A stretch of DNA of 64,000 nucleotides, from NCBI GenBank assembly GCA_964016885.1, contig OZ024740.1, positions 326,678,001-326,742,000 on the forward strand, in the 5' to 3' direction. Every line of letters starts with the position of its first letter. The first letter of the stretch is position 1. This DNA comes from Eledone cirrhosa (lineage: Eukaryota). Under the pieces are notes generated by a model that did not search any database, was not told where the DNA came from, and was given only the letters and a program-made list of their open reading frames with translations. A program made the translations under genes and the position numbers. Below, in pieces: positions 6,520 through 60,245 of this stretch.

Positions 6520-6610
<91 letters not shown>

Positions 6611-6982: not shown

Positions 6983-7026
<44 letters not shown>

Positions 7027-7031
<5 letters not shown>

Positions 7032-7943
7032 TAAGTATGTACACGTACATACATATATGTATACAGACGTACAGTAGTATGTATATATACATACACACAC
7101 GCACACATATATATGTACGTATGGATTCACCGAATATTTATTATAATGCTCGATGTGTTTGTAAACAAACATCCCGTATTAAGCCGTAGTGTCCAGCAAC
7201 CATCGTTGCTCGTTTGTTCAACACTGACAAAGGAACGCTGTACTAGTTTCAAGCTTATTAGCTATCGTCAGCAACGTATACCTTTCTGCCAGATTGTTGA
7301 ACGTATATACTTACCTTATGCATATTAACGGCTGAATAGCCCAATTTGCATATCGAGTGGGTTAATCGGCCGGGTGCACCGAATACGATAAACGGAAAAA
7401 ATGAAACGAAATTTAATTTCCCACTCTTAGTACGGCTGTTACTTAAATATAAGTATGTACACGTACATACATATATGTATACAGACGTACAGTAGTATGT
7501 ATATATATATACATACACGCACACATATATATATTTATATGTACGTATGGATTCACCGAACATTTATTATAATGCTCGGTCTGTTTGTAAACAAACATCC
7601 CGTATTAAGCCGTAGTGTCCAGAAACCATCGTTGCTCGTTTGTTCAACACTGACAAAGGAACACTGTACTAGTTTCAAGCTTATTAGCTATCGTCAGCAA
7701 TATACCTTCCTGCCAGATTGTTAAACGTATATACTTCCCTTATGCATATTAACGGCTGAATAGCCCAATTTGCTTATCGAGGGGGTTAATCGGCCGGGTG
7801 CACCGAAAACGATAAACGGAAAAAATGAAACGAAATTTCATTTTCCACTTTTAGTATGGCTGTTACTTAAATATAAGTATGTACACGTACATACATATAT
7901 GTATACAGACGTACAGTAGAATGTATATATATATACATACACG

Positions 7944-7984
<41 letters not shown>

Positions 7985-8809
7985 GTATGGATTCACCGAA
8001 CATTTATTATAATGCTCGGTCTGTTTGTAAACAAACATCACGTATTAAGCCGTAGTGTCCAGCAACCATCGTTGCTCATTTGTTCAACACTGACAAAGGA
8101 ACGCTGTACTAGTTTGAAGCTTATTAGCTATCGTCAGCAACGTATACCTTTCTGCCAGATTGTTGAACGTATATACTTACCTTATGCATATTAACGGCTG
8201 AATAGCCCAATTTGCATATCGAGTGGGTTAATCGGCCGGGTGCACCGAATACGATAAACGGAAAAAATGAAACGAAATTTAATTTCCCACTCTTAGTACG
8301 GCTGTTACTTAAATATAAGTATGTACACGTACATACATATATGTATACAGACGTACAGTAGTATGTATATATATATACATACACGCACACATATATATAT
8401 TTATATGTACGTATGGATTCACCGAACATTTATTATAATGCTCGGTCTGTTTGTAAACAAACATCCCGTATTAAGCCGTAGTGTCCAGAAACCATCGTTG
8501 CTCGTTTGTTCAACACTGACAAAGGAACACTGTACTAGTTTCAAGCTTATTAGCTATCGTCAGCAATATACCTTCCTGCCAGATTGTTGAACGTATATAC
8601 TTACCTTATGCATATTAACGGCTGAATAGCCCAATTTGCTTATCGAGGGGGTTAATCGGCCGGGTGCACCGAAAACGATAAACGGAAAAAATGAAACGAA
8701 ATTTCATTTTCCACTTTTAGTATGGCTGTTACTTAAATATAAGTATGTACACGTACATACATATATGTATACAGACGTACAGTAGAATGTATATATATAT
8801 ACATACACG

Positions 8810-8848
<39 letters not shown>

Positions 8849-10260
8849 GTATGGATTCACCGAACATTTATTATAATGCTCGGTCTGTTTGTAAACAAAC
8901 ATCACGTATTAAGCCGTAGTGTCCAGCAACCATCGTTGCTCATTTGTTCAACACTGACAAAGGAACGCTGTACTAGTTTGAAGCTTATTAGCTATCGTCA
9001 GCAACGTATACCTTTCTGCCAGATTGTTGAACGTATATACTTACCTTATGCATATTAACGGCTGAATAGCCCAATTTGCATATCGAGTGGGTTAATCGGC
9101 CGGGTGCACCGAATACGATAAACGGAAAAAATGAAACGAAATTTAATTTCCCACTCTTAGTACGGCTGTTACTTAAATATAAGTATGTACACGTACATAC
9201 ATATATGTATACAGACGTACAGTAGTATGTATATATATATACATACACGCACACATATATATATTTATATGTACGTATGGATTCACCGAACATTTATTAT
9301 AATGCTCGGTCTGTTTGTAAACAAACATCCCGTATTAAGCCGTAGTGTCCAGAAACCATCGTTGCTCGTTTGTTCAACACTGACAAAGGAACACTGTACT
9401 AGTTTCAAGCTTATTAGCTATCGTCAGCAATATACCTTCCTGCCAGATTGTTGAACGTATATACTTACCTTATGCATATTAACGGCTGAATAGCCCAATT
9501 TGCTTATCGAGGGGGTTAATCGGCCGGGTGCACCGAAAACGATAAACGGAAAAAATGAAACGAAATTTCATTTTCCACTTTTAGTATGGCTGTTACTTAA
9601 ATATAAGTATGTACACGTACATACATATATGTATACAGACGTACAGTAGAATGTATATATATATACATACACGCACACATATATATATATATATATATGT
9701 ACGTATGGATTCACCGAACATTTATTATAATGCTCGGTCTGTTTGTAAACAAACATCACGTATTAAGCCGTAGTGTCCAGCAACCATCGTTGCTCGTTTG
9801 TTCAACACTGACAAAGGAACGCTGTACTAGTTTCAAGCTTATTAGCTATCGTCAGCAACGTATACCTTCCTGCCAGATTGTTGAACGTATATACTTACCT
9901 TATGCATATTAACGGCTGAGTAGCCCAATTTGCATATCGAGTGGGTTAATCGGCCGGGTGCACCGAAAACGATAAACGGAAAAAATGAAACGAAATTTCA
10001 TTTCTCACTCTTAGTACGGCTGTTACTTAAATATAAGTATGTACACGTACATATGGATGTACATATATATATGTGTCCGTGTATGTATACATACTACTGT
10101 ACGTCTGTATACATATATGTATATACGTGTATACATATATATATGTGTGCGTGTATGTATATATATATATATACATACTACTGTACGTCTGTATACATAT
10201 ATGTATGTACGTGTACACACTTATATTTAAGTAACAGCCGTACTAAGAGTGGGAAATGAA
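7027..10260 (-). mobile_element. Retrozyme-like tandem array, ~430-bp monomer x7 (864-866-bp dimer periodicity), plus short inverted arm at ~10075-10260
   Basis: Tandem repeats visible directly. One minus-strand HHR core per unit. No meaningful ORF. TA-rich flanks. Confidence 0.85.
7235..7277 (-). ncRNA. Type I hammerhead ribozyme (first of 7 in the 430-bp array)
   Basis: Reverse complement reads acgttg-CTGACGA-tagct aata agctt-GAAA-ctag-TA-cagcgt. Stem III ACTAGT is palindromic. Confidence 0.88.
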
Positions 10261-10272
10261 ATATATATATAT

Positions 10273-12081
<1,809 letters not shown>

Positions 12082-12101
12082 ATATATATATATATATATA
12101 T

Positions 12102-13141
12102 AAAAGACGTAAAATAAGAAAATTTAAAAACTTTTTTTTTTTAAAATTAACTTACTTACTTAAATTTTCACTCCAACTAATTAGTTTCTGCAATGGGATA
12201 AAGATAGTTACGTAATGAACTGTTGAGAATTTCATTGCGTCATCAGGGAGGTCTATTCTCAGCCAAGTCTCCAGGCAATGCGCGGACACTGGGGACTCAT
12301 ATAAAAATAATAATAATTCGGTAAATGGAACAGCTATCGAGGACTGGATTCCAGGTACTGAAAATTCTCACTGCTACTGGTCATATGGCCGATTCTAAAG
12401 AATCAATCACGTGACACAGAGGCTAGTCAGTAGGAATGGGATGGTAAGATGACAGACGCCTACTAACACCCCCAAAAAATTTTAGAAGTGGTTTTGGCAG
12501 GTTTGCTCGACAAAACAGTGATTTGGAGATAAATATAGATAATTTAATATATCTACTAACATAAGCGCACAGATGTACGCTAATGCTAGCAAATACACAG
12601 GTTATGTCATAGTACCTAGGTGGTTCAATGCAGGAGGATGCAGAACAATAATATAAAAGACGTAAAATAAGAAAATTAAACATTTAAAAAAAAAAAAATT
12701 AACTTACTTAAATTTTCACTCCAACTAATTAGTTTCTGCAATGGGATAAAGACAGTTACGTAATGAACTGTTGAGAATTTCATTGCGTCATCAGGGAGGT
12801 CTATTCTCAGCCAAGTTTCCAGGCAATGCGCGGACACTGGGGACTCATATAAAAATAATAATAATTCGGTAAATGGAACAGCTATCGAGGACTGGATTCC
12901 AGGTACTGAAAATTCTCACTGCTACTGGTCATATGGCCTATTCTAAAGAATCAATCACGTGACACAGAGGCTAGTCAGTAGGAATGGGATGGTAAGATGA
13001 CAGACGCCTACTAACACCCCCAAAAATTTTTAGAAGTGGTTTTGGCAGGTTTGCTCGACAAAACAGTGATTTGGAGATAAATATAGATAATTTAATATAT
13101 CTACTAACATAAGCGCACAGATGTACTCTACTGCTAGCAAA
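12102..13141. repeat. ~550-bp tandem duplication (1.9 units), non-coding, between TA tracts
   Basis: 12102-12650 is repeated nearly identically at 12655-13141. Confidence 0.9.
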
Positions 13142-13179
13142 TTATCTATATATTATATTAAATTATCTATATTAAATTA

Positions 13180-26812: not shown

Positions 26813-26861
<49 letters not shown>

Positions 26862-27449
26862 AATTTATGTTGGTTGTATACCAACACCTCAGTATGCAGG
26901 CTGGAGCACTCGACGAAGTGCGCAGGTTGGTTTGGTTGCTCCGGAGTAGTGTAAAATAAAGTTAAATAAAAAGTCAAATGATTAAAATTTAGCTTCGTTT
27001 ATTACTGCTATATATATTTCAGTGACAGCCATCTTTGGCTGTGACCTCTTCAGGCAGTTTGAATTAGTATGGTATAGACAAGTACATATGTTGTTGAGGT
27101 GTATAATATTGTCAATACTCTGATATGCCCAGTTCCTGGTTGGGTTGTTATTTCACTGAGGAACTGGAATCATATGAATTCAAACAAACGTCTTTCAGTG
27201 TCAAAGGTCCTCTTCTCCTCTCATTGGTCAGTTATTAGAACATTCCTCATTCTAAGTGTTGCTATTGTTGGAGTTAGCTTAAAAAATTGATAAAATGGCA
27301 AGAAGGGACAAGGTGTTAAAGGAATAAAATAACAAAAATAGTGTCATACTTCCCATTGGTCAGTTCTGAGAGCATTCCTCAGTCAGAAGTCTATAGAATT
27401 CTTTCTGGGGTGAGGCTCCCTGTAGTGTTTTTGTTTGCTATTGTTAAGT

Positions 27450-29846
27450 CAGGAGTACCTCAGACACCTGAGAAACCGGATTACAGTACTTAAAGGGACA
27501 ACTGGAATACTTGTCCATGCTGACAAAACAAACAACCTCTACAACATGAACACTGAACTGTACAATAAGATAATCCTCAGGGAACTGAGGAAGTGCTACA
27601 AAAAAACACCTGGATTTACCCTGGATGAGATCAATGCCACAGCTTACAGGATTATATCCAGAATCGGCATAGAGGACAGGACGGCCCCATACCAACCAAG
27701 GGAGCCGCAGATTATCCTTAAAGACCACAAGCCAAACTTTAAGTCCGGCCTCCCTGTCAGACTAATAGCCCCTCCAGATCTGACCTAGGGATCGTCAGTA
27801 AAAGAATACTGGATAGGATTTTGCCCAAGCTTCGGAAGAAAACTAAATTACAGCAATGGTCATGCACGGGAGAAATAATAGAATGGTTTAAAATACTGCA
27901 TGAGAAAAGTAGGACCAGCTTTATACAACTAGACATCGAAAGCTACTACTCCTCAATCTCACCCATAGTACTTAATAAGGCCCTATTTTTAGCGATGTCC
28001 AATACGGACCTAACCCGAGAGGAGGTGAGCATCATCTACGCCGCAAGAAAGACCTTAATCCGCTTCGATGGAGACCTTTGGACCAGGAGTGATTGGCCAA
28101 ATAACTTTGACATCACGATGGGCTCCAGCGACTCAGAGCAGGTAACGGACCTGGTTGGGCTCTACCTGCTGAAGCAGATAAAAGATGAAATCCCCTGCCT
28201 GGGCGGCGGATTATATCGTGACGATGCTCTATTCACAGTATATGACCACAGCACCAATATGTTGGAGGGTATGAGGAGGCGTATTCGCCATTTCTTTAAG
28301 AACCAGGGGCTCAGCATAGAAATAGACCCAAATAGGAATGTAGTTAACTTCCTAGACACCACCCTAAACCTGAACACTGAGCAATACTACCCCTACCACA
28401 AGCCCAACGAGAAACTCGTATATGTTAACGCCAAATCAAACCACCCTAGATCCATAACCAAGGCAGTGGTGAAGAGTGTCTCGGACAGGATCTCCAGCCT
28501 GTCCGCAAGTAAGGAAATATTCAATAACCACGCGGAATATTACAACGCAGCTCTAAAGAAGGCGGCACATGGCCAAAATATAACATATAGTCCGAAAAGC
28601 CGAGATGGGGATAGCCCAACAGACACCCACAACCGCGTTGCCCGGGGGGGGGCGAATCCTAACAATACAGGCAGAGCAGAATCAAATAGGCACCATGTGC
28701 CCGACACCCCACACGGGCGGTGGGGACTAGTGCGCTTGACCACGAGATGGAGCACAATATGAGTAGCAGTCTCAGGCGTGACGCTAACCACCCCAGGATA
28801 GACGACCCCAACCTCAGGACACGTAGGGGTGGGGGAGGAAACGAGCGACCACCCCACGATGGATCTCCCGGGGCGGACAACGACCACCCCACAAATTCGG
28901 GCCGCGAAGATAACAAAAAGCATAGAGCCCAAAGGGGAAGCAACAGTGCGGAAACCACCAGCAACCCAACAAATCTCCAACAAATCACGACGCTCCCGAC
29001 CCACACATATAGGAGGAGACACCGAAAAATCACGCGGTACAACCCACCCTACTCAGCGGCCCTAAAGAAAAGCTTGGCCCGATAATTCTTTGGAGCACTT
29101 GACAAATGCTTCCCGAGGGACCACAGATACCACAGGATCTTCAACAGACACACTGTGAAGCTCTCATATTCCACCACGAGAAATTTGGCCTAACACATAG
29201 CTAGCATCAACAGAAGTAGGCTTAAAAACCACACACAACCAGAATATGGCAATACAAACACTCAGCAGAACCATGTGAAAGGAGGGAAGGGGGGGGGGGA
29301 CCCAGAGCCCACCCAAGAAACGAAAACAGACCCGAGGACCCCCCACCGAGCCCGGGGGAAGACCAACATGTAACACATTACGGGAACCCTAATCTAGGCA
29401 CGCAGAGGCCGACCACCCTCTGCAACTGCAGAAACCCCGAATCATGCCCCCTTGGTAATGAATGCCTCAAGAAGAACCTAGTATACGGTTGTAGGTTTAA
29501 AACCCCCAACTCCGAACACCTCTACATAGGAGCCACATCAACGAGCTTTAAAGACCGCTGGTACAACCATCGCCATTCATTCAAGAAGGAGGCCAAAAGG
29601 AAAAGCACAGCTCTCTCCGACCTGATCTGGAAGCTTAAGCTGGACAGGACCCCATACTCTCTGGCCTGGTACATAATCAGGAAAGTACCACCCGATAAAG
29701 GGGGATCTTGCATATGCAAACTATGCCTGAACGAGACCCTCGAGATACTAAGAGGTGGAAGCGGTCTGATAAACCTCAGAACCGATTTCTTCGGGACATG
29801 CAGACACCTTAGAGCCGGGACCTTTCTCAAGATATATGGACAGTAG
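27450..29846 (+). pseudogene. Penelope-type reverse transcriptase + GIY-YIG endonuclease (frameshifted, 5'-truncated)
   Basis: ADKTNNLY, LKDHKPNF, PVRLI, DIESYYSSI, MGSSDS, YRDDAL, NFLD, SNHP; then CNCR..CPL..CL..LVY..YIG, CKLCLNE. Confidence 0.93.
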
Positions 29847-31055
29847 CAACACAAGAAGATGTGAACTCCCCTCAAGCTATAGGGACTTCTACAGAACATG
29901 AAAACACCTCTCGGCCAGACCTCCCTCAAGCTATATGGGCAGTAACAACACCCTAGGTTGTGAACTCCCCTCAAGCCATAGGGAACAACCCAGGCTGAGC
30001 AGACACCATGATAGCCTAGAGATAGAATCGGACACAGCCATTATAATTTGGCCAACATCTATATAACACAAATACTTTTTAATTTACTAGATTTCTGATT
30101 TTCAAGTTCCAATTTTAAATCTTGATTTCTCTTTATTAATTTGTTATTTGTTTTCTGCCCTCTTCACTGTATCAGCTTATATTTATTTTAAAGTTGAGAT
30201 TGATTATAACACAAACACTTTTAGTTTGATTATCTTAATCTTAACATCTTGTCCTCATACCAATCTATCCAACATATTTCTGACCTTGAGATTGGTTATA
30301 GCACACACACACTTTATCCTACATTATTTTTCACTTCTCCATATTCATTTTCATTACTTTTTCACCAATTTTTCATTTATTCTTTATTCTTTATTCTCTA
30401 TTTATTTATTTATTTTCAAATTATACAAATTATATTAATTATTTTATATTATTTATTTATTTTCTGTTTTCTTCATTTATTGCCTTATATTTCTTCATAT
30501 ACATGGAAGACCCCCCCCCCCCCTCCACCACCACTATGAGAGATGGTGGCAGGAGGGATGAAGAAAAAACACACACTGGATACTTCTAAATTGTTAGCAG
30601 CAGCAAGATATAAGCTGACCACAACACCAACAACACTACCAAAATAATGGTAGAGGTCAAATGTACTTAACAATAGCAAACAAAAACATTACAGGGAGCC
30701 TCACCCCCAGAAAGAATTCTATAGACTTCTGACTGAGGAATGCTCTCAGAACTGACCAATGGGAAGTTTGACACTTTTTTTGTTATTTTGTTCCTTTAAC
30801 ACCTTGTCCCTTCTACCATTTTATCAATTTTTTAAGCTAACTCCAACAATAACAACACTTAGAATGAGGAATGTTCTAATAACTGACCAATGAGAGGAGA
30901 AGAGGACATTTGACACTGAAATTCGTTTGTTTGAATTCATATGATTCCAGTTCCTCAGTGAATTAACAACCCAACCAGGAACTGGGCATATCAGAGTATT
31001 GACAATATTATACACCTCAACAACATATGTACTTGTCTATACCATACTAATTCAA

Positions 31056-31110
31056 ACTGCCTGAAGAGGTCACAGCCAAAGATGGCTGTCACTGAAATAT
31101 ATATAGCAGT
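31056..31110 (+). ncRNA. Type I hammerhead ribozyme of element A (minus-strand copies at 27004-27058 and 34931-34985)
   Basis: actgc-CTGAAGA-ggtcacagcc..ggctgtcact-GAAA-tatata-TA-gcagt. Confidence 0.9.
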
Positions 31111-31151
31111 AATAAACGAAGCTAAATTTTAATCATTTGACTTTTTATTTA

Positions 31152-31200
<49 letters not shown>

Positions 31201-32318
31201 AGATCAAAATATGGTTAAAGGAGTTCCATATATTTTATTATGCGCATTTCAAAAACAAACATCATCATGCAATAATATTTGTGTTTTCATCAGATAAAAC
31301 AGGAGAACATGATATGAAGGCTAAAAAACACTTGTGGATAGTGCAGTTTTAAATCAACATATGAAAAGTGGTTTTAGATTGATGTGTGATATTGGGAAAA
31401 ATATTTTATTTAGAGAGGGGGGGGGGGGAAGGATGAAAAGGGAAGGAGATGAGAGGGAGAGATGGGTGATAGAGAGAAAGAGATAGTTTTTATAACTGAG
31501 AGGAGATATCTTTTTTACATAGAGAGGTTGAAAACCGTTGGAAGATACTGTATAAATTAAAAATTTTGAAAATTAACGAAGGGAGGATATGTGCGAGGAA
31601 AAAATATTTTATTTAGGGAGGGTGGGGTGGGGTGGGGTGGAAAGGATGAAAAAAAGGGGGAGGAGATGAGAGTGAAGGTGGAGAGGGAGAGATGGGTGAT
31701 AGAGAGAAAGAGATAGTTTTTATAACTGAGAAAAAGATATATTGTTTTAATATAGAGAGGTTGGGAACCGTTGGAAGATAATGTATAAATTAAAGGAATT
31801 TGAAAATTAACGAAGGGAAATTATGTATGAAGATAGAGAGAAAAAAATAATAATTGTGGGTGAATATTCTAACGTCAAAAAAAGAAATGTATGTATTGTG
31901 GCAATTTCAAAATTAACGAAGAGAAAAATTGTTAAGGTTTGTGTGTAGAAGGATTTGAGAAAAATAATGTGAAGTTAAAGTTTGTATATTGATTGAATTG
32001 ATAATATATGCGAATAAAGAGTTAATATGTATTAATAATGAGTTCGTTGATGGGGAGAAAAAAATAATAATAAATTAAGGATGAAATTGAGATTAAAAAG
32101 ATTTATGATAGAGAGAAAAAATAATAATGATTGCGGATGAATATTCTGATGTCAAAACAAATGTTATGATTTTACAAGAAGATAGAATGAGGGTAATGAG
32201 TAAACGAGTATTATAGAGTGTATAATGCCCTTTAAAGTAAGGTAGATGGGTATATTTTAAAGAGGTGTATGTATATGTGCCTTTGAGAAAAGATTCTAAA
32301 TTGATAAAGAATTGAATA

Positions 32319-33596
32319 TTAACTGTATACTTTGTGAAAATTTCTATGGAATTTATGCAGGCAGATAGAAAACAAATCTGTGCGTCTATTTATTATAGAA
32401 TCTAGGTTAGAGATAATGGTAAATTTTTCATTTAGGCAGAGATTACAGATTTTAGATAGAGAGCTGTTCAAGTATGAGGATGCAGAAGAAATCTTCTTCC
32501 AAAAGATGGTATATTTAATGTTTTTGTCTTTTAAGGACCATATGAGTTCTGAGAGAGCAGTGTTAGTTCTTTTAAGTTTGTATTTGAAAGATGAATGATG
32601 ATTATAGAGACGAGCTTTAAAAGAGGTGGAAGTGGATCCAAAATAGGTGAAGGAATTGGTGCTAGTTATAATTTTACATTCATAAATTAAGTTTTTATCG
32701 AGACAATGGTTGTTGAGAGGACATTTATTTTTAATGCGGCAGTTGCAATTAGAGAGATTATTAATGAGTGATCTAGTGTTATCTATAGAAGGAATTGGAT
32801 TGGAGAAGTTGTTTGCGATAGGAATAATAGGAATAATAGTTTCTTGATTTAGAGTTGGATTATGAACATTTAGCGAAGTTGTGTTTGACGTTGTATTTGG
32901 GTTTACAGAAGTTAGCCTAGGGTTTACAATGACGTCGGGAGTACTATTACTGTTATTATGAAATTCAATATTGGAAGGAAGAGATTTAGTATTTAGTATT
33001 TTATTGTTGTGTTTAGAGATGATGTTGGAAATATTGGAGGATGTAGAATACGAAAATTTGATGGTGTGTTTGTTAAATATTTTACTATAGATATGTGAGG
33101 GAGGGAAGCATTTATTTAAGGCACTAAAAAATAATTTAGGAATATTGTTATTAATAGAGATGGAGAAAGGAGCATTATACCAGATTATGTTTTTGTATCT
33201 AGGTCTTTTATTAAAATTATTGGAATGGTCATGATTAATTATTCTACTGTAAGTTTTTCTAGAATTTGTTTCTTTATTATATTTGATTTTATCTGGATAG
33301 CCGGCTTTAGAAAGTGCGTTATTATAGTAATTGGCGTTAGCATCAAAGTTGTTTTTATTAGGAGATATGTTAGATATTCTATTTCCAATATTATTAACTA
33401 TAGCATTCTTGATATTGGTAGGATGGTTAGATTTAAAGTTAACATAATTAAGGTTCTCATTGTTTTTATGGTAAGGGTAATATAGGCCAGTGTCAAGATT
33501 AAGAGATACATCCAAGAAATTAGCTAGATTGATACTATTATCAAATTCAATTTTTAGGTTATGTTGGTTAAAGAGATTACGTATATTGTTCTTGAA
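32319..33596 (-). pseudogene. 5'-truncated Penelope RT C-terminus + GIY-YIG, open frame
   Basis: NFLDVSLNL, PYHK, SNHP, IIWYNAPFS, CNCRIKNKCPL..CL..LIY..YFG, CNLCLNEK. Confidence 0.92.
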
Positions 33597-34884: not shown

Positions 34885-34889
<5 letters not shown>

Positions 34890-37800
34890 TAAATAAAAAG
34901 TCAAATGATTAAAATTTAGCTTCGTTTATTACTGCTATATATATTTCAGTGACAGCCATCTTTGGCTGTGACCTCTTCAGGCAGTTTGAATTAGTATGGT
35001 ATAGACAAGTACATATGTTGTTGAGGTGCATAATATTGTCAATACTCTGATATGCCCAGTTCCTGGTTGGGTTGTTAATTCACTGAGGAACTGGAATCAT
35101 ATGAATTCAAACAAACGAATTTCAGTGTCAAATGTCCTCTTCTCCTCTCATTGGTCAGTTATTAGAACATTCCTCATTCTAAGTGTTGTTATTGTTGGAG
35201 TTAGCTTAAAAAATTGATAAAATGGTAGAAGGGACAAGGTGTTAAAGGAACAAAATAACAAAAAAAGTGTCAAACTTCCCATTGGTCAGTTCTGAGAGCA
35301 TTCCTCAGTCAGAAGTCTATAGAATTCTTTCTGGGGGTGAGGCTCCCTGTAATGTTTTTGTTTGCTATTGTTAAGTACATTTGACCTCTACCATTATTTT
35401 GGTAGTGTTGTTGGTGTTGTGGTCAGCTTATATCTTGCTGCTGCTAACAATTTAGAAGTATCCAGTGTGTGTTTTTTCTTCATCCCTCCTGCCACCATCT
35501 CTCATAGTGGTGGTGGAGGGGGGGGGGTCTTCCATGTATATGAAGAAATATAAGGCAATAAATGAAGAAAACAGAAAATAAATAAATAATATAAAATAAT
35601 TAATATAATTTGTATAATTTGAAAATAAATAAATAAATAGAGAATAAAGAATAAAGAATAAATGAAAAATTGGTGAAAAAGTAATGAAAATGAATATGGA
35701 GAAGTGAAAAATAATGTAGGATAAAGTGTGTGTGTGCTATAACCAATCTCAAGGTCAGAAATATGTTGGATAGATTGGTATGAGGACAAGATGTTAAGAT
35801 TAAGATAATCAAACTAAAAGTGTTTGTGTTATAATCAATCTCAACTTTAAAATAAATATAAGCTGATACAGTGAAGAGGGCAGAAAACAAATAACAAATT
35901 AATAAAGAGAAATCAAGATTTAAAATTGGAACTTGAAAATCAGAAATCTAGTAAATTAAAAAGTATTTGTGTTATATAGATGTTGGCCAAATTATAATGG
36001 CTGTGTCCGATTCTATCTCTAGGCTATCATGGTGTCTGCTCAGCCTGGGTTGTTCCCTATGGCTTGAGGGGAGTTCACAACCTAGGGTGTTGTTACTGCC
36101 CATATAGCTTGAGGGAGGTCTGGCCGAGAGGTGTTTTCATGTTCTGTAGAAGTCCCTATAGCTTGAGGGGAGTTCACATCTTCTTGTGTTGCTACTGTCC
36201 ATATATCTTGAGAAAGGTCCCGGCTCTAAGGTGTCTGCATGTCCCGAAGAAATCGGTTCTGAGGTTTATCAGACCGCTTCCACCTCTTAGTATCTCGAGG
36301 GTCTCGTTCAGGCATAGTTTGCATATGCAAGATCCCCCTTTATCGGGTGGTACTTTCCTGATTATGTACCAGGCCAGAGAGTATGGGGTCCTGTCCAGCT
36401 TAAGCTTCCAGATCAGGTCGGAGAGAGCTGTGCTTTTCCTTTTGGCCTCCTTCTTGAATGAATGGCGATGGTTGTACCAGCGGTCTTTAAAGCTCGTTGA
36501 TGTGGCTCCTATGTAGAGGTGTTCGGAGTTGGGGGTTTTAAACCTACAACCGTATACTAGGTTCTTCTTGAGGCATTCATTACCAAGGGGGCATGATTCG
36601 GGGTTTCTGCAGTTGCAGAGGGTGGTCGGCCTCTGCGTGCCTAGATTAGGGTTCCCGTAATGTGTTACATGTTGGTCTTCCCCCGGGCTCGGTGGGGGGG
36701 TCCTCGGGTCTGTTTTCGTTTCTTGGGTGGGCTCTGGGTCCCCCCCCTTCCCTCCTTTCACATGGTTCTGCTGAGTGTTTGTATTGCCATATTCTGGTTG
36801 TGTGTGGTTTTTAAGCCTACTTCTGTTGATGCTAGCTATGTGTTAGGCCAAATTTCTCGTGGTGGAATATGAGAGCTTCACAGTGTGTCTGTTGAAGATC
36901 CTGTGGTATCTGTGGTCCCTCGGGAAGCATTTGTCAAGTGCTCCAAAGAATTATCGGGCCAAGCTTTTCTTTAGGGCCGCTGAGTAGGGTGGGTTGTACC
37001 GCGTGATTTTTCGGTGTCTCCTCCTATATGTGTGGGTCGGGAGCGTCGTGATTTGTTGGAGATTTGTTGGGTTGCTGGTGGTTTCCGCACTGTTGCTTCC
37101 CCTTTGGGCTCTATGCTTTTTGTTATCTTCGCGGCCCGAATTTGTGGGGTGGTCGTTGTCCGCCCCGGGAGATCCATCGTGGGGTGGTCGCTCGTTTCCT
37201 CCCCCACCCCTACGTGTCCTGAGGTTGGGGTCGTCTATCCTGGGGTGGTTAGCGTCACGCCTGAGACTGCTACTCATATTGTGCTCCATCTCGTGGTCAA
37301 GCGCACTAGTCCCCACCGCCCGTGTGGGGTGTCGGGCACATGGTGCCTATTTGATTCTGCTCTGCCTGTATTGTTAGGATTCGCCCCCCCCCGGGCAACG
37401 CGGTTGTGGGTGTCTGTTGGGCTATCCCCATCTCGGCTTTTCGGACTATATGTTATATTTTGGCCATGTGCCGCCTTCTTTAGAGCTGCGTTGTAATATT
37501 CCGCGTGGTTATTGAATATTTCCTTACTTGCGGACAGGCTGGAGATCCTGTCCGAGACACTCTTCACCACTGCCTTGGTTATGGATCTAGGGTGGTTTGA
37601 TTTGGCGTTAACATATACGAGTTTCTCGTTGGGCTTGTGGTAGGGGTAGTATTGCTCAGTGTTCAGGTTTAGGGTGGTGTCTAGGAAGTTAACTACATTC
37701 CTATTTGGGTCTATTTCTATGCTGAGCCCCTGGTTCTTAAAGAAATGGCGAATACGCCTCCTCATACCCTCCAACATATTGGTGCTGTGGTCATATACTG

Positions 37801-38052
37801 TGAATAGAGCATCGTCACGATATAATCCGCCGCCCAGGCAGGGGATTTCATCTTTTATCTGCTTCAGCAGGTAGAGCCCAACCAGGTCCGTTACCTGCTC
37901 TGAGTCGCTGGAGCCCATCGTGATGTCAAAGTTATTTGGCCAATCACTCCTGGTCCAAAGGTCTCCATCGAAGCGGATTAAGGTCTTTCTTGCGGCGTGG
38001 ATGATGCTCACCTCCTCTCGGGTTAGGTCCGTATTGGACATCGCTAAAAATA
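34885..38052 (-). mobile_element. Inverted second copy of element A (matching 27984-31157)
   Basis: Near-identical reverse complement with few SNPs and homopolymer differences. Confidence 0.93.
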
Positions 38053-38063
38053 TATATATATAT

Positions 38064-41000
38064 AAATTGGAATAAATGCTCTGAAATAGCGATATATATG
38101 TGAATATAGACATAGAATATTCGAAAATATTCTGTATGTTTATAATAAACATTTTGAAGACCTAATCGCTATAGAATAGAATACGTCACGTATTACAATT
38201 AGATTCTCGACAAAAGCAAGGGAAGTAAATCTACGCGTTTCATTCTCGTTAGAAATCGTCAGGACTACATATCCAGTGCTTTTATCGAGAATGACACAGC
38301 TAGAGACTTATAGAATACTTAGCCGTGTACAGGAACTGGTTTGAAAGAGCGGTTGCCGGTCCGGCAGAAATTAGAAATTGGAATAAATGCTCTGAAATAG
38401 CGATATATATGTGAATATAGACATAGAATATTCGAAAATATTCTGTATGTTTATAATAAACATTTTGAAGACCTAATCGCTATAGAATAGAATACGTCAC
38501 GTATTACAATTAGATTCTCGACAAAAGCAAGGGAAGTAAATCTACGCGTTTCATTCTCGTTAGAAATCGTCAGGACTACATATCCAGTGCTTTTATCGAG
38601 AATGACACAGCTAGAGACTTATAGAATACTTAGCCGTGTACAGGAACTGGTTTGAAAGAGCGGTTGCCGGTCCGGCAGAAATTAGAAATTGGAATAAATG
38701 CTCTGAAATAGCGATATATATGTGAATATAGACATAGAATATTCGAAAATATTCTGTATGTTTATAATAAACATTTTGAAGACCTAATCGCTATAGAATA
38801 GAATACGTCACGTATTACAATTAGATTCTCGACAAAAGCAAGGGAAGTAAATCTACGCGTTTCATTCTCGTTAGAAATCGTCAGGACTACATATCCAGTG
38901 CTTTTATCGAGAATGACACAGCTAGAGACTTATAGAATACTTAGCCGTGTACAGGAACTGGTTTGAAAGAGCGGTTGCCGGTCCGGCAGAAATTAGAAAT
39001 TGGAATAAATGCTCTGAAATAGCGATATATATGTGAATATAGACATAGAATATTCGAAAATATTCTGTATGTTTATAATAAACATTTTGAAGACCTAATC
39101 GCTATAGAATAGAATACGTCACGTATTACAATTAGATTCTCGACAAAAGCAAGGGAAGTAAATCTACGCGTTTCATTCTCGTTAGAAATCGTCAGGACTA
39201 CATATCCAGTGCTTTTATCGAGAATGACACAGCTAGAGACTTATAGAATACTTAGCCGTGTACAGGAACTGGTTTGAAAGAGCGGTTGCCGGTCCGGCAG
39301 AAATTAGAAATTGGAATAAATGCTCTGAAATAGCGATATATATGTGAATATAGACATAGAATATTCGAAAATATTCTGTATGTTTATAATAAACATTTTG
39401 AAGACCTAATCGCTATAGAATAGAATACGTCACGTATTACAATTAGATTCTCGACAAAAGCAAGGGAAGTAAATCTACGCGTTTCATTCTCGTTAGAAAT
39501 CGTCAGGACTACATATCCAGTGCTTTTATCGAGAATGACACAGCTAGAGACTTATAGAATACTTAGCCGTGTACAGGAACTGGTTTGAAAGAGCGGTTGC
39601 CGGTCCGGCAGAAATTAGAAATTGGAATAAATGCTCTGAAATAGCGATATATATGTGAATATAGACATAGAATATTCGAAAATATTCTGTATGTTTATAA
39701 TAAACATTTTGAAGACCTAATCGCTATAGAATAGAATACGTCACGTATTACAATTAGATTCTCGACAAAAGCAAGGGAAGTAAATCTACGCGTTTCATTC
39801 TCGTTAGAAATCGTCAGGACTACATATCCAGTGCTTTTATCGAGAATGACACAGCTAGAGACTTATAGAATACTTAGCCGTGTACAGGAACTGGTTTGAA
39901 AGAGCGGTTGCCGGTCCGGCAGAAATTAGAAATTGGAATAAATGCTCTGAAATAGCGATATATATGTGAATATAGACATAGAATATTCGAAAATATTCTG
40001 TATGTTTATAATAAACATTTTGAAGACCTAATCGCTATAGAATAGAATACGTCACGTATTACAATTAGATTCTCGACAAAAGCAAGGGAAGTAAATCTAC
40101 GCGTTTCATTCTCGTTAGAAATCGTCAGGACTACATATCCAGTGCTTTTATCGAGAATGACACAGCTAGAGACTTATAGAATACTTAGCCGTGTACAGGA
40201 ACTGGTTTGAAAGAGCGGTTGCCGGTCCGGCAGAAATTAGAAATTGGAATAAATGCTCTGAAATAGCGATATATATGTGAATATAGACATAGAATATTCG
40301 AAAATATTCTGTATGTTTATAATAAACATTTTGAAGACCTAATCGCTATAGAATAGAATACGTCACGTATTACAATTAGATTCTCGACAAAAGCAAGGGA
40401 AGTAAATCTACGCGTTTCATTCTCGTTAGAAATCGTCAGGACTACATATCCAGTGCTTTTATCGAGAATGACACAGCTAGAGACTTATAGAATACTTAGC
40501 CGTGTACAGGAACTGGTTTGAAAGAGCGGTTGCCGGTCCGGCAGAAATTAGAAATTGGAATAAATGCTCTGAAATAGCGATATATATGTGAATATAGACA
40601 TAGAATATTCGAAAATATTCTGTATGTTTATAATAAACATTTTGAAGACCTAATCGCTATAGAATAGAATACGTCACGTATTACAATTAGATTCTCGACA
40701 AAAGCAAGGGAAGTAAATCTACGCGTTTCATTCTCGTTAGAAATCGTCAGGACTACATATCCAGTGCTTTTATCGAGAATGACACAGCTAGAGACTTATA
40801 GAATACTTAGCCGTGTACAGGAACTGGTTTGAAAGAGCGGTTGCCGGTCCGGCAGAAATTAGAAATTGGAATAAATGCTCTGAAATAGCGATATATATGT
40901 GAATATAGACATAGAATATTCGAAAATATTCTGTATGTTTATAATAAACATTTTGAAGACCTAATCGCTATAGAATAGAATACGTCACGTATTACAATTA

Positions 41001-41531
41001 GATTCTCGACAAAAGCAAGGGAAGTAAATCTACGCGTTTCATTCTCGTTAGAAATCGTCAGGACTACATATCCTAACGAGAATGAAACGCGTAGATTTAC
41101 TTCCCTTGCTTTTGTCGAGAATCTAATTGTAATACGTGACGTATTCTATTCTATAGCGATTAGGTCTTCAAAATGTTTATTATAAACATACAGAATATTT
41201 TCGAATATTCTATGTCTATATTCACATATATATCGCTATTTCAGAGCATTTATTCCAATTTCTAATTTCTGCCGGACCGGCAACCGCTCTTTCAAACCAG
41301 TTCCTGTACACGGCTAAGTATTCTATAAGTCTCTAGCTGTGTCATTCTCGATAAAAGCACTGGATATGTAGTCCTGACGATTTCTAACGAGAATGAAACG
41401 CGTAGATTTACTTCCCTTGCTTTTGTCGAGAATCTAATTGTAATACGTGACGTATTCTATTCTATAGCGATTAGGTCTTCAAAATGTTTATTATAAACAT
41501 ACAGAATATTTTCGAATATTCTATGTCTATA

Positions 41532-41535
<4 letters not shown>
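38064..41535. mobile_element. Retrozyme-like array, 311-bp monomer x9.7 (HHR on -) plus inverted arm 41073-41535 (x1.5, HHR on +)
   Basis: Exact 311-bp period with apparently identical units. One HHR per unit. (TA)n on both sides. Confidence 0.92.
41370..41408 (+). ncRNA. Type I hammerhead ribozyme (10 minus-strand copies from 38228-38266, every 311 bp)
   Basis: agtc-CTGACGA-tttct aacg agaat-GAAA-cgcg-TA-gatt. Stem III ACGCGT is palindromic. Enclosed by the stem attctcgataaaagc/gcttttgtcgagaat. Confidence 0.88.
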
Positions 41536-41588
<53 letters not shown>

Positions 41589-41840: not shown

Positions 41841-42480
41841 GGCGGTGAATTGGCAGTATCGATAGAGAGTCGGACAACATATTTTGTGGCATATAGATAC
41901 GGCCCTTTAAGTTTTGCATTAGAATCCCGCCGATGTCAACTTTGCCTTTCATCCTTTCGTGGTCGATAAAATATTGTACCAGTCAAGTACTGGCGTCAAC
42001 TTTGCCCTTCATCCTTTCGCTGTCGATAAAATATTGTACCAGTCAAGTACTGGCGTCAACTTTGCCCTTCATCCTTTCGCTGTCGATAAAATATTGTACC
42101 AGTCAAGTACTGGCGTCAACTTTGCCTTTCATCCTTTCGTGGTCGATAAAATATTGTACCAGTCAAGTACTGGCGTCAACTTTGCCTTTCATCCTTTCGT
42201 GGTCGATAAAATATTGTACCAGTCAAGTACTGGCGTCAACTTTGCCTTTCATCCTTTCGCTGTCGATAAAATATTGTACCAGTCAAGTACTGGCGTCAAC
42301 TTTGCCTTTCATCCTTTCGTGGTCGATAAAATATTGTACCAGTCAAGTACTGGCGTCAACTTTGCATTCCGTCTTTTGTTGGGCGATAAAATACTGTACC
42401 AGTCAAGACTGGGGTCAACTTTACATTTCATCCTTTCTTGGGCGATAATACATTGTAGCAGTCAAGTGCTGTTGTCGATG
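41841..42480 (+). mobile_element. tRNA-derived SINE whose core is expanded into a 60-bp minisatellite (~8.5 units, 41935-42455)
   Basis: Head GGCGGTGAATTGGCAG. The unit gtcaactttgcctttcatcctttcgtggtcgataaaatattgtaccagtcaagtactggc matches the core of the single-copy SINEs at 44678 and 62808. Confidence 0.8.
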
Positions 42481-49290: not shown

Positions 49291-50289
<999 letters not shown>

Positions 50290-50689: not shown

Positions 50690-51504
50690 TAGATAAATAT
50701 ACACGGGTGTGTATGATTGTGTATAGAAGATTATATTAATAAAAGGAATTCCAACTTTGTCTGATTTACTCGTTTTATTTACAATCCTTTAAAATTTATA
50801 ATGGTATTAGAATGAAATAGTATGGTAGAATATTAAATGTTAAGTGTTAATTGAACAAGTACTTTCATGCTTTCGCAATCTTCAGGTTCATATTGTGTGG
50901 TGACAGTCAAGTTTGCAATTTTCAACTGTAATGAGATGGGTAAATTTTGTGCCTTATATACAGTGAAAAGTGGCTCCAGAATGCTAAATCTTGCAAACTC
51001 TATTTCGACCAATCAGTGTGTAGTTTCACTGGATTACTAAAGTTGATTGGTTTAGGCGTCACGGTTGGTTGAGCATGTCTAACGACTACTAATTAACCCT
51101 ATCCAAATCATCAATTGTTTTGCTATTTTTAGAAATGATGAAAATAGCATTTTCTACTAATCATCACCATCAACATCACTTTTATTATTATTATTGTTGT
51201 TATTGATGTTAGTGGTCGTAGTCATAGTCATAGTAGGATTAATACCCCATTATTATTGTTCATTTAGCTTGGGTTTGAATTTATCAATAAAATTCTTTTC
51301 TTTGATTTTTCTCTTGATTTTACCTGGGCTGTGTAATTTGTAGAATGGGAATATTATAAACATTCCCTGACAACATGTTGCTAGCTGGTTACTTAGGGGT
51401 ATCTGACGGGCATTTGGGTCTCTGATTTGCTGTCGGTGTACCCGTACACGTTCAGATAGTGCATCTCCAGTTTGACCGACATATAGTTCTTCACAATTCG
51501 GGCA

Positions 51505-53564
51505 TTACGCTGATAAAAGTAATGAGAGTGATGAATCACTAGTAAAGAATAAATCAAATTTTATTCCGCCAAACGGAAGAAATATCTATCTCGACCAATA
51601 CATTGACATCCTGTCTAAATTTCCTCTTAGACGTAATACTAATGTTAGGCCAAACATTAACAAATCAGAAATGTCTACACTTAAACGTATACAAAATGAT
51701 AAAACAATAATAATTAAACAAGCAGATAAAGGGGGTGCAGTTGTTATAATGGATGCTGAATACCACAAAGATTTGGTTGAGGAACAACTGAAAGACACAA
51801 CATTCTATCATGAAATACCGTCAAATATAGACCACAACATCATGAAGAAGATCAACAACCTGGCTTCAAAATACCACAATTCACTTACTGTTAAGGAAAG
51901 AGAATACATCACCAATTTTGAGCCAAAACCCAGCAACCTGTATGGCCTACCGAAAGTTCATAAGTCAAAAGAAATTCAACTGGCAGTAACAAAGTGAGTA
52001 CATTAAATTACTACACCCAAAAGACTTAAAACTTAGACCTATTATAGCTGGTCCAACATGCCCCACCCACCGTCTAAGCATATTTTGTTGACATTATTTT
52101 GAAACCACTATGTATTCACATACCCAGTTTCATCCGGGATGATATCGACTTCCTGTCCCATCTTCCCAAAATCACGGAAACGAATTCACTTCTACTTACT
52201 TTTGAGGTGGTAAGCCTTTACACCAACATTACACATGATTTAGGAATAAAGGCGGTTAAATACTGGGTGGAAAAACATAGAGAAGTGATTCCCATCAGAT
52301 TCACAGAGCCATTTATATTAGACGCAGTTAAACTTATTCTGGAAAACAACACTTTCTTCTTCAATGGAAAGAATTACATCCAAATTAGAGGCACAGCGAT
52401 GGGAACGAAGTTTGCTCCCGTTTACGAGAAGTCTGTAATGGGATACTTAGAACAACAACTCTACCAAGAAATAGAGGAAAAATATAGCACTGACTTTAGA
52501 AAGTACATTGAAAAATCTTGGAAGAGATACCTTGACGACTGTTTCATCATCTGGACAGAATCTCTAGATACTCTGGATGAGTTCAATATCCTCCTGAATA
52601 ACCTACACCCATCTCTCCAATTCACAAAAGAGATGAGTAGTACCAAATTACCATTCCTAGATATAATGATAATCAAAAACGACACCACCATTACCACGGA
52701 TATATATTATAAACACACAGACACCCATCAATATCTGAATTTTAAGTCGTGCCATCCACCTCATACAAAACCCAACATCCCATACTGCCTAGCCAGAAGA
52801 ATTTGTACCATTGTAGAAGATACGAATACCAGGTACAAACGCCTAACAGAACTAAGAGAATTTTTGCTCAAACAAAAATACCCATCTCTACTTATAGAAA
52901 ATGGCATACAGCGGACTATAAAAATACCTATACAACAACCCAAGGAAGAAGAAACCAAGAACTGGTCATACCATTTATAATGACACACAACCCATGTCAC
53001 CAGAATATCTTCAACACTGCCAAAGCAAACCTACCGATCATTGATCAAAGTAATGAATTAAAAGGCTTAATCACAGATTGATCTTTAACTCTTAGTAAAA
53101 GACAGCCGAAAAATTTGAAGCAATTACTAACAAAAGCAAAGTTTGACCTTAACAACAAAGACCAATCATTCACTGTATCTAAATGCAATGATAGCCAATG
53201 TGGCACATGTCAATCCATACACACCGGTCAATATATGAAAACAAAAACTGGAAAAATATCCCCAAATGCAAATATGAACTGCAAAAGCAGAAATCTAATT
53301 TACTGCATTAAATGCCCGAATTGTGAAGAACTATATGTCGGTCAAACTGGAAATGCACTATCGGAACGTGCACGGGTACACCGACAGCAAATCAGGGACC
53401 CAAATGTCCGTCAGATACCTCTAAGTAACCATCTAGCAACATGTGGTCAGGGAATATTTATAATATTTCCATTCTACAAATTACACAGCCCAAATGAAAT
53501 CAAGAGAAAAATCAAAGAAAAGAATTTTATTGATAAATTCAAACCCAAGCTAAATGAACAATAA
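51505..53564 (+). pseudogene. Penelope-type RT + GIY-YIG (frameshifted)
   Basis: KQADKGGAVVIM, YGLPKVHK, VVSLYTNI, GTAMGTKFAP, RYLDDCF, PFLD, SCHP; then CNDSQCGTC, NLIYCIKCPNC..YVGQT. Confidence 0.94.
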
Positions 53565-53764
53565 TAATGGGGTATTAATCCTGCTATGACTATGACTACG
53601 ACCACTAACAACAACAACAACAATAATAATAATAAAAGTGATGTTGATGGTGATGATTAGTAGAAAATGCTATTTTCATCATTTCTAAAAATAGCAAAAC
53701 AATTGATGCTTTGGATAGGGTCAATTAGTAGTCGTTAGACATGCTCAACCAACCGTGACGCCTA

Positions 53765-53868
53765 AACCAATCAACTTTAGTAATCCAGTGAAACTACACA
53801 CCGATTGGTCGAAATAGAGTTTGCAAGATTTAGCATTCTGGAGCCACTTTTCACTGTATATAAGGCAC
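53765..53868 (+). promoter_or_regulatory. Putative pLTR Pol II promoter (CCAAT boxes + TATA)
   Basis: CCAATCA, ATTGG, then GAGCCACTTTT...TATATAAG about 65 nt upstream of the HHR. The GAGCCACTTTT motif recurs at ~6254 in the other Neptune-like element. Confidence 0.4.
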
Positions 53869-53926
53869 AAAATTTACCCATCTCATTACAGTTGAAAATT
53901 GCAAACTTGACTGTCACCACACAATG

Positions 53927-53965
53927 TGAACCTGAAGATTGCGAAAGCATGAAAGTACTTGTTCA
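53927..53965 (+). ncRNA. Minimal hammerhead ribozyme of element C (minus-strand copy at 50852-50890)
   Basis: tgaac-CTGAAGA-ttgc gaaa gcat-GAAA-gtac-TT-gttca. Confidence 0.87.
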
Positions 53966-54085
53966 ATTAACACTTAACATTTAATATTCTACCATACTAT
54001 TTCATTCTAATACCATTATAAATTTTAAAGGATTGTAAATAAAACGAGTAAATCAGACAAAGTTGGAATTCCTTTTATTAATATA

Positions 54086-58304: not shown

Positions 58305-58752
58305 TGGAGAAAGACTGTATATGAGGGAAAAGTTGCCTTTGCGGCATCTCGAATCGCATACGAGAAAGTAAAGCGGGATGTGAGGAAGGGCATTGCTGTT
58401 GCACTTCCAGACGGCGAGGGTCCTCCTATGGTGCTGACATGCAGCGTATGTGCGAGACTCTGCCTAAGCAAAGCTGGACTCGAAAGTCATCTTCGCAGTC
58501 ATAATGTAAGACCAGTGGTTGACTACCAGGCTGCTGTTGGAGATGCTACTCATCATGCTTTCCAAACATGTGGTAGAGAATGTAAATCAGCAGGAGGGCT
58601 CAAGCGACATGCAAAAGTACACGAACTCCAACCACAGCCGACTATTCCCAGTGAATGTTTTTTTTTTTTTTTTTTTTTTCTGCCGTCTCTGTGCAAGATA
58701 TTTTAGATCATTGGCTGGGCTAACAAGCCGCATTCGATCGCAGCGCTGTTAG
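58305..58752 (+). mobile_element. LINE (RTE-like) 3' end with C2H2 zinc fingers
   Basis: WRKTVYEG...CSVCARLCLSKAGLESHLRSH...TCGRECKSAGGLKRHAKVH, plus a third degenerate finger. Confidence 0.65.
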
Positions 58753-58758
58753 TTGCTA

Positions 58759-58810
<52 letters not shown>

Positions 58811-58876
58811 GCTTATGTGTGTGCGTGTGTGTGTATATATATATGTATATGTATATTATTATTGTTGTTGTCGTTA

Positions 58877-60245
58877 AACTGGGACGAGGTGACGAGCAGG
58901 GTGGCTTCTCTCACCCAGAAATGGGCGGAGAGGAAGCTATCCCTGAAAGGTCGAGCGGAGGTGGCGAATGCGTACATCGCGTCCGTCATCTACTACCGCC
59001 TGACCGTCGTACCTTGTCCTAAGCCCCGCCTGACTGCGCTGGAGCGTTTGCTCTTTCGCTTCTTGTGGAAGGGACGTGCTCCGATGGTCAGGCGGTCCAT
59101 CTACTGTCAACACCCGCTACGTGGAGAGCTGGGCATGCCGTGGCTGATGATGCGCAGACACGCGCTCAGGCTACGACATCTCCACCTCTTCCTCGACGGT
59201 GATCAGGTGTGGTCGCCGTTTGCTAGACACGTTTTTCCCCAGCTCGTCTCCTTGACGGAGCTGCAGTCCTGGGTCAAGCGAAGACCGAGAGGGAGCGCTT
59301 GGAGACTGGAATGTCTTCAGGCGCTCACAGCCCTCGACCAATCGGGTAATGTGATCGGTGGAAACTCCACCTTGGCGTTCTATAGGGGATTAGTGGAGGG
59401 GAAGAGCGACGACGTACTTGGAGAAACTCTAGGCGTCGACGAAAATCAACTAGCCAATCTCTTCAGAAGGACTTTCGGGCCGGGGCCTATGGACAACTTC
59501 CAGAAATCCCTGGCCTGGCAGTGCTACCGGGGAGCTTTGCCAGTTCGGGATAAACTCTACAGGCATGGAGGTGCCGTCAGCCGGGCATGTCCGAGATGCG
59601 CGCAGGGCGACGAAACCGTCCTGCACGCACTCGTCCAGTGTCCGAGCATTGCTGACTTGTGGATTTATGTCGAACACCTGCTGTCACGTGTAGGACGGAT
59701 CCAGCTATCAGCTGAGTCCATCGTGAGGATTGCCCCGCCCCCTTCCTTTAGCCGGGAAGGGCAGGCAGTTTTTATCTGTCTGGTGGCCATGGCGAAAGAG
59801 ATAGTATGGTGGACACGTTTGAAAGGGCTGAAGACGAGCACTTACCTCTTCGGTGATGCCCTGATTAACCTTTTCAAATTTCATTTGAAAAGGAAAATCA
59901 GGGTAGAGAGGGAAGTGCTCTCTTCCCAGAATTTTGTTGAAAGATGGGTGAGAGAAGCAAGTATGGCCCGAATGAATGGGCCTTCTCTGAGTATGTGTCT
60001 GTAAATTAAGGGTGGAAAACTGGGAGAGGGCACTTGCCCTGGTGGTCAGGGTCACTGTGGTCTTTTAATGGGCTTTCTCCACAAATGTCCCTCGGAAGTC
60101 TCCCCCCTATTGGGGAATTTTTCTTTGTTATTTTATTTCATCCTCTGTTTTTTACACGCAGAAATGCCCATTTGTACCGTCCTATATTGTCCTGTACTGT
60201 CCTTAATGTCTACTTTATGTAAACCCTTGTGGTTAATAAAGAAAA
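58877..60245 (+). mobile_element. 5'-truncated Tx1/L1-clade non-LTR retrotransposon (ORF2 C-terminus 58877-60004 + 3' UTR)
   Basis: W..RKLSLKGRA, FLWKG, GALPVRDKL, CCHC knuckle CPRCAQGDETVLHALVQC; AATAAA at ~60235. Confidence 0.9.

Follow-up and report, generated by a model that had tools for sequence, protein, structure and literature searches.

Among the closest described systems are the non-LTR retrozymes of metazoans, which, as presented in the main texts of PMC7229834 and PMC7761336, are tandem arrays of non-coding units of 150-450 bp with a GC content under 50%, each unit carrying one type I hammerhead ribozyme. They are found together with Penelope-like elements (PMC7229834; 10.64898/2026.07.22.740005). 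Amphibian retrozymes are described as having a weak stem III that requires a dimer (PMC7761336), and a preprint on frogs reports cleavage in only one of nine tested retrozyme dimers (10.64898/2026.07.22.740005). Synthesis of tandem cDNA from a circular RNA by a Penelope-like element is a published hypothesis (PMC7229834, with the model in Fig. S9), in whose main text the words "inverted" and "rolling" occur 0 times. The 2026 preprint by Li, Clavereau and Pollet (10.64898/2026.07.22.740005), in the portion available to us, argues from co-occurrence and trees and partly replaces the circle-to-tandem hypothesis with local amplification.

Characteristic of Penelope-like elements themselves are (TA)n targets, a partner copy in inverted orientation and, at one end, a tail of 30-40 nt (PMC8557442, main text). 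In vitro, both strands of AT-rich DNA are cut and extended by a purified Penelope-like protein for which a dimer is predicted; its synthesis begins at two sites within the RNA, and these set the 30-40-nt tail (PMC11167929, main text). How Penelope-like elements come to insert in tandem and inverted form, with the tail on one side, is described as undefined in the main texts of PMC8557442 and PMC11167929. The former also describes the Chlamys elements, e.g., MRC1, which are non-autonomous, non-coding Penelope dependants that insert head-to-tail in multiple copies and resemble the 3' ends of their helpers, in a clade said to lack canonical hammerheads.

The window analyzed here, a 64,000-nucleotide stretch of Eledone cirrhosa DNA, contains an array at 38064..41535 that appears to work like a non-LTR retrozyme moved by a Penelope-like enzyme. 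Its unit is 311 bp long, with a GC content of ~0.35 and a longest stop-free run of 59 codons, and each whole unit carries a type I hammerhead motif for which self-cleavage is predicted. Expression, cleavage and circles were demonstrated in the retrozyme papers, whereas the array is known from its DNA sequence. We consider it probable that the array is one young, non-coding hammerhead-repeat insertion with two facing arms in a TA microsatellite, for which a Penelope-like protein cut both strands and both 3' ends copied one small, probably circular RNA round and round. The features on which this reading draws are as follows.

38050..38063, no strand: left (TA)n target tract, recognized from the sequence; putative primer of arm A.
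38064..41073, plus strand: arm A, 9.68 identical 311-bp units, with the cDNA read as the plus strand and the ribozyme as the minus strand; starts at site A (unit position 1) and stops at unit position 211.
38092..38101, plus strand: first-unit copy of site B (unit positions 29-38), an AT tract belonging to the unit and the place where B arms of the family start.
38221..38274, minus strand: type I hammerhead motif of the first unit, called from motif and stems, with its core from 38262.
Between 38232 and 38231, minus strand: predicted cut of the first-unit hammerhead; the motif recurs each 311 bp on this strand as far as 41061.
38211..38211, minus strand: allele at unit position 148, G on the RNA strand and A in most copies; candidate A-to-I edit in a long stem.
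38324..38324, minus strand: allele at unit position 261, G on the RNA strand and A in most copies; candidate A-to-I edit in a long stem.
41073..41535, minus strand: arm B, 1.49 identical inverted units, with the cDNA read as the minus strand; overlaps arm A by 1 base, starts at site B (position 38) at 41535, and has a single plus-strand hammerhead core at 41374.
41536..41588, no strand: right (TA)n target tract, recognized from the sequence; putative primer of arm B.

The initial annotation of this DNA had counted about 11 identical 311-bp units, and alignment confirmed their exact identity. The 311-bp period is exact over 38064-41073 (3,010 bp, 9.68 units, 0 mismatches), and the inverted arm at 41073-41535 (463 bp, 1.49 units) exactly matches, as reverse complement, the unit from position 189 back to 38. 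The array's outer ends correspond to unit positions 1 (left) and 38 (right), and the hammerhead cut is predicted at 168/169, so the ends lie at different monomer positions and neither is the cut site, as the annotation had stated; its proposal of internal priming away from the cut site is supported by the same positions. The right end merges into (TA)n beside the unit's own ATATATAT tract (positions 29-36), with one mismatch, again in agreement with the annotation, and the left end likewise borders (TA)n (38050-38063), a point missing from it. LTR, primer-binding-site and polypurine-tract architecture is lacking (judged by layout in the fetched loci, where the arms adjoin (TA)n directly), and a reading frame for reverse transcriptase (RT) and GIY-YIG was not found in the 311-bp unit. 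The annotation had also called the event very recent. The youth stands but does not set this locus apart: given how often variants occur within loci of the family (134 variants in 220,698 bases, ~6 per 10,000, with most arrays uniform), a flawless 3,473 bp has a probability of 0.12, and the flawless state of the array is therefore ordinary for the family.

Hammerhead cores occur ten times on the minus strand of the array and once on its plus strand. The motif consists of the core CUGACGA plus GAAA, a 4-bp stem II with a U-U mismatch at its base, a GUA cut triplet, and a stem I of 4 contiguous pairs in the array haplotype and 6 in the commonest haplotype. Stem III is a palindromic 6 nt that would require a dimer and is predicted to be too short for monomeric cleavage. 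A scan of the whole window with Rfam at the gathering score returned 0 matches. The ribozyme call is therefore based on the core motif and stems, together with four related repeats that show compensatory changes, keeping the core and altering the stems; across the five related repeats the stems covary. Pairing of C3 with G8 in the hammerhead is well established, and the C3-G8 of the array motif is replaced by a compensatory U3-A8 pair in two relatives. C3-G8 pairing is also used in PMC11167929 (main text). All 100 shuffled sequences fold less well than the ribozyme strand (z -4.1).

Several other hammerhead repeats were noted in passing. A sister 320-bp repeat, ~70% alike, lies at window 49332-50284, two-armed within (TA)n, with a U3-A8 hammerhead core and a full stem III; it has at least 117 matches in the assembly. 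Three repeats of other families (window 7026-10330, 10409-12082 and 12098-13142; ~424, 466 and 550 bp) are all stacked in TA tracts, and the first two are partly inverted. Elsewhere in the assembly, loci L155, L158 and L168 hold a short unrelated repeat, often as a small palindrome flanked by TA tracts, with a hammerhead stem II nearly that of the 311-bp family.

Approximately 1,200 insertions of the 311-bp family are dispersed through the 3.0-Gb assembly, and their arms start either at site A (unit positions 1-3) or at site B (29-43), about 35 nt apart (26-40). Junction patterns applied assembly-wide gave ~1,200 A junctions (606 were counted on the reverse strand, a variable gap doubling the forward counts) and 1,178 B junctions (unit positions 29-38), with 0 for reversed-pattern controls. 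The first 171.9 Mb of contig C1 contain 74 A and 74 B sites; all 46 facing pairs within 20 kb there were A+B and 0 were A+A or B+B, while 28 sites of each kind were partnerless under the exact patterns used. From 74 consecutive fetched A loci, a set selected on a TA flank at the A end (unlike the first 19 loci that we examined), we obtained 66 A+B, 0 A+A and 5 one-armed insertions, with 3 extending beyond the fetched stretch. Loci picked by similarity and not by their ends yielded A+B in 14 of 17 fully seen two-armed copies (this array included), the remaining three (L038, L042 and L044) having one end at another site. The sister 320-bp family uses identical sites, with A+B in 7 of 30 fetched loci and 0 facing A+A or B+B. 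The family therefore has a two-arm layout and two fixed start sites, one of each per insertion. The initial annotation had proposed looking for circular permutation of start points at other loci; random permutation was not found, and the outcome that the annotation had named as a refutation, all genomic copies starting in the same phase, was observed in a modified form, with two fixed sites in place of a single phase, which removes random priming and does not remove rolling-circle copying.

The target is (TA)n at both ends of the array and at most ends elsewhere in the family, and every arm, read inwards from its TA flank, is the complement of the ribozyme strand, as would be expected of cDNA primed from that flank. 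The predicted cut shows no enrichment of inner arm ends (4 of 115 lie near it); these ends, together with the seamless sequence at 168/169, led us to reject template jumping at the ribozyme cut. The inner joints (n = 67) fall at scattered positions and comprise 28 microhomologies, 7 blunt joints and 32 insertions, a spectrum that would fit end-joining repair. Arm lengths are uncorrelated (rho 0.18, n 46), which counts against a strictly coupled dimer, since such a dimer might have produced a correlation.

The family's geometry, with 66 of 74 loci A+B, matches the Penelope type of inverted partner and one-end tail. Autonomous Neptune and Hydra copies in the assembly have a long and a short end in 8 of 10 informative two-armed copies (14 were examined; offsets of ~35-40, 60 and 80-98 nt, by eye). 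Site B is the AU tract of the RNA, able to pair with the target, and site A offers 1-2 bases. Like the endonuclease-bearing Penelope-like elements Neptune, Hydra, Naiad and Poseidon as described in the main texts of PMC8557442 and PMC11167929, with their inverted 5'-truncated partner and a 30-40-nt tail that is often one-ended, the family has paired, inverted arms, (TA)n targets and a hammerhead motif upstream of the start sites; cutting and extension of both strands, an in vitro feature of the Penelope-like protein (PMC11167929), would be a further common trait. Unlike these elements, the array unit is without a reading frame, has many units per arm, and is without a homologous terminal repeat in the loci searched; a strand preference of either start site was also not seen in vitro (PMC11167929), whereas the family has one of each per insertion. 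The unit differs from Chlamys elements in having a hammerhead motif and in that no resemblance to a helper 3' end was found in the loci searched. Another comparison is with LINE-1. In LINE-1 twin priming, both nicked target strands prime on one RNA, giving an inversion, with the second primer at a variable upstream place and the two cDNAs covering different parts of the RNA; the array cDNAs, in contrast, would start at two fixed places ~35 nt from each other and both copy one sequence repeatedly. Non-LTR retrozymes are a kind already known, and the two-armed, fixed-end footprint was not found in published papers: the inverted layout, fixed start sites and (TA)n target are absent from the portions of the retrozyme papers that were covered, and paired fixed ends, a common arm haplotype and editing-like alleles in retrozyme insertions were not found in the literature covered, mostly open-access main texts.

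A helper was sought by BLAST of the unit against the window and the masked flanks of 59 loci, and with a four-family DNA profile against 50 GIY-YIG loci (of 10,595 candidates). No terminal repeat related to the unit was found in those 50 loci or in the window, and the search returned only other retrozyme-like repeats. A match at L121 was rejected as a helper, being a separate TA-flanked insertion behind a Neptune element. As a helper was not found in the loci searched, the Penelope link rests on the footprint, which makes a Penelope-like protein the likely helper. Pfam gave weak or no matches for the element proteins of the window, and clade names follow the motifs in PMC8557442 (main text). 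Noted in passing at L150 (C1:145868500-145878400) was a Neptune element in which two direct terminal repeats flank an open frame of 938 codons; the 3' end of this element, too, is placed at an AT tract inside it, ~150 nt behind a hammerhead with U3-A8.

In the mechanism that we propose, arrays would be transcribed, paired hammerheads would cut the RNA, and ligation would yield circles of 310-311 nt, some A's of which would be edited in long stems by a host deaminase. A dimer of the Penelope-like protein would hold one RNA and cut both target strands. The first cDNA would start at site A via 1-2 bases of pairing and the second at site B, where the TA end of the target would pair with the AU tract of the RNA; both would run past the ligation point, leaving no seam, and the same-sense cDNA ends would be joined at variable points by end-joining repair.

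Haplotypes bear on whether both arms copied the same template. Among 56 consecutive loci in which each arm exceeds one unit, arms A and B have matching haplotypes in 51, across 26 haplotypes (shuffles: mean 6.1, maximum 16). Our first counts (42 of 44 agreeing; 10 vs 0 at network tips) included loci chosen for their likeness to the array, and the consecutive set is quoted instead. The exceptions are L079, L179 and L196, which have short arms and differ at 1-2 sites, L076, which is a mosaic, and L187, which has a haplotype switch in both arms. In the array, the haplotype common to both arms is unique: a 67-base pattern diagnostic of it has 11 matches in the 3.0-Gb assembly, all inside the array. 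Two A-to-G changes on the ribozyme strand, at positions 148 and 261 and each within a long predicted stem, separate the array haplotype from the nearest common one, which 11 of 60 loci carry in a sample biased in its favor. The G at position 148 is present in all units of both arms, and the G at 261 in all units covering that position.

Similar changes recur across the family. In the haplotype network of 67 consecutive loci, RNA-strand A>G changes outnumber U>C by 16 to 5 (p 0.004), and by 10 to 3 at the tips only (p 0.02); within-locus variants lean the opposite way (A>G 11 vs U>C 20; Fisher p 0.005). A-to-G recurs at positions 148, 203, 219 and 220 on different haplotype backgrounds. In the predicted fold, the four recurrent sites have a pairing probability of 1.00, and 38 of 92 A's exceed 0.8. 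Among the 67 loci, site 148 is all-G in 5, all-A in 62 and mixed in 0, and the corresponding counts at site 203 are 4, 59 and 1; of six extra loci picked for G at 148, five are uniform and one, L208, is mixed. One change on one RNA, present in all units of both arms, is what a monomer circle predicts, whereas edits on a linear multimer would be expected to produce differences from unit to unit. The all-or-none RNA-strand alleles and the private haplotype in all 11 units support the initial view of an RNA template in which one monomer was copied repeatedly.

Squids and octopuses edit their RNA heavily, and A-to-I editing would be the simplest source of the A-to-G alleles. Because an A-to-G change turns an A-U pair into a G-U pair, which is tolerated, part of the bias could nonetheless come from selection on the fold, and the direction of the change at site 148 is uncertain because two relatives carry G at its counterpart; both points weaken the editing reading. 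The fuller version of our proposal is that each insertion involves one Penelope-like dimer and one RNA circle, that the active sites are split over the two start points and the two cut strands on the same template, and that host A-to-I edits are written into all units of both arms, with editing feeding heritable variation. We offer it tentatively, as a reading slightly more apt to fail than to hold.

Alternatively, twin priming by a Penelope-like enzyme could occur on a linear, multi-unit transcript of a source array, with the number of units set by template length. This is how L187 (C1:136718200-136726200) could be explained, where both arms swap lineage haplotype after the second unit from the outer end (X,X,Y / X,X,Y,Y...), as if read in parallel; L084 and L208 fit parallel reading by both arms as well. 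A stem III too short for monomeric cleavage would also favor such a template, as would the observation that uncut RNA is the main substrate in vitro (PMC11167929, main text). The array haplotype, however, is without a source array in the assembly, and edits or errors on a multimer would vary by unit, yet site 148 is mixed in none of the 67 consecutive loci and is all-G on several backgrounds, each origin of which would need a single-unit bottleneck. We therefore regard a linear template as unlikely for the array, while accepting that L187 reflects either a linear multi-unit template or a synchronous template switch and that L187, L084, L208 and L076 need multimeric templates or template switching. 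Mosaic loci, in which a variant is present in some but not all units, number 11 of 80; a twelfth flag, L189, proved to be two pooled insertions.

A short insertion of 1-2 units per arm could instead have been expanded later in the chromosome by slippage or unequal exchange, like a satellite, and the frog preprint proposes local amplification by unequal crossover (10.64898/2026.07.22.740005, in the part available to us). Long arms at five loci (L061, L065, L066, L089 and L171) contain repeated blocks (L065 and L089, for example, have variants at units 5 and 12), and the arm of at least 31 units at L171 (C1:97461200-97471100) is an irregular mosaic of two linked variants; that of L061 has at least 25 units. 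Because of these blocks, DNA-level growth or multimeric templates also contribute, and unit number need not equal revolutions everywhere, which qualifies the earlier estimate of about 10 RT revolutions: repeated copying of a monomer stands, and the equation of units with revolutions does not hold throughout. The array is without an internal variant that could tell revolutions from later growth. As a general origin, later expansion is quite improbable, since most arrays are uniform at 6 variants per 10,000 bases, expansion of both arms would have to precede mutation at each of more than 1,000 dispersed loci, and older tandem repeats nearby in the window are only 93-99% alike.

In a third alternative, one enzyme would make ~10 rounds, after which the cDNA would fold back and self-copy 1.5 units, up to the point where the right target end paired with its AT tract. 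Site B, an AT tract within the unit, does provide ready microhomology with (TA)n, and arm B is shorter than arm A in the array. In the family, however, B arms exceed A arms in 21 of 46 loci, at the extreme by 6,019 vs 370 bp, and it is the outer, not the inner, units of the long arm that recur in the short arm of L187. These two observations contradict a fold-back origin, which we judge very improbable, and for the same reasons we favor a second cDNA with its own priming, over an extension of the first, as the origin of the inverted part.

Least probable of all is that identity or copy number is an artefact of assembly or polishing: the runs covering the array are short-read contigs, those of run set X1 end at the TA junction, and contig ends and gaps occur at some family loci (L033, L059 and L209), yet collapse or polishing would favor the commonest haplotype whereas the one in all 11 units occurs at no other place in the assembly, other loci retain their own haplotypes and joints, and X1, an independent run set, contains the unit at very high depth. 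The unit is present in sequencing runs under 18 organism codes. In two of these runs under other codes, X4 and X7, it forms a single 340-letter contig, a closed cycle of 310 plus 30, that shares the haplotype and lacks the neighboring element, which may reflect a related species, contamination or transfer.

Together, more than 1,000 fresh copies provide countable rules for a proposed insertion by one Penelope-like protein on one small RNA: one A and one B end, a single haplotype, and all-or-none changes of RNA type. The 311-nt unit with its two predicted start sites is a named substrate for an in vitro assay, so the mechanism of Penelope and retrozyme insertion becomes directly testable. The alleles also suggest that RNA edits can turn into inherited DNA variants.

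The array lies beside a Penelope-like element.

34886..38052, minus strand: 5'-truncated Hydra-clade Penelope-like element (RT, CxCx5C linker, GIY-YIG), called from motifs.

This element is the end of a 4.5-kb inverted duplication, its frame is set off from the array by (TA)n, and it is probably a separate, earlier event. A single chimeric event joining the array to its truncated neighbor was rejected, as A ends of the family adjoin (TA)n throughout, and is also disfavored by the neighbor being the end of a duplication with 6 substitutions. The duplication (27984-32472 / 38052-33591) is 99.2% identical, with those substitutions and homopolymer indels; within it lie a TA tract, most of the Hydra-clade element and the terminal part of a second Hydra element. 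At its far end, the duplication meets the TA tract entered later by the array. Both ends of the second Hydra element are "short", unlike those of its L051 copy, so the duplication looks like a fold-back copy of flanking DNA. More Penelope-like elements lie at window 26858-31158, 50732-54085, 3008-6623 and 1095-1586, among them Hydra (DKT and CxCx5C motifs; ends differing by ~98 nt), Neptune (~39 nt) and fragments. A 60-bp minisatellite (9 copies, 93%) occupies window 41935-42471, immediately to the right of the array, and window 58724-60004 contains a 426-codon frame resembling the 3' part of a LINE element.
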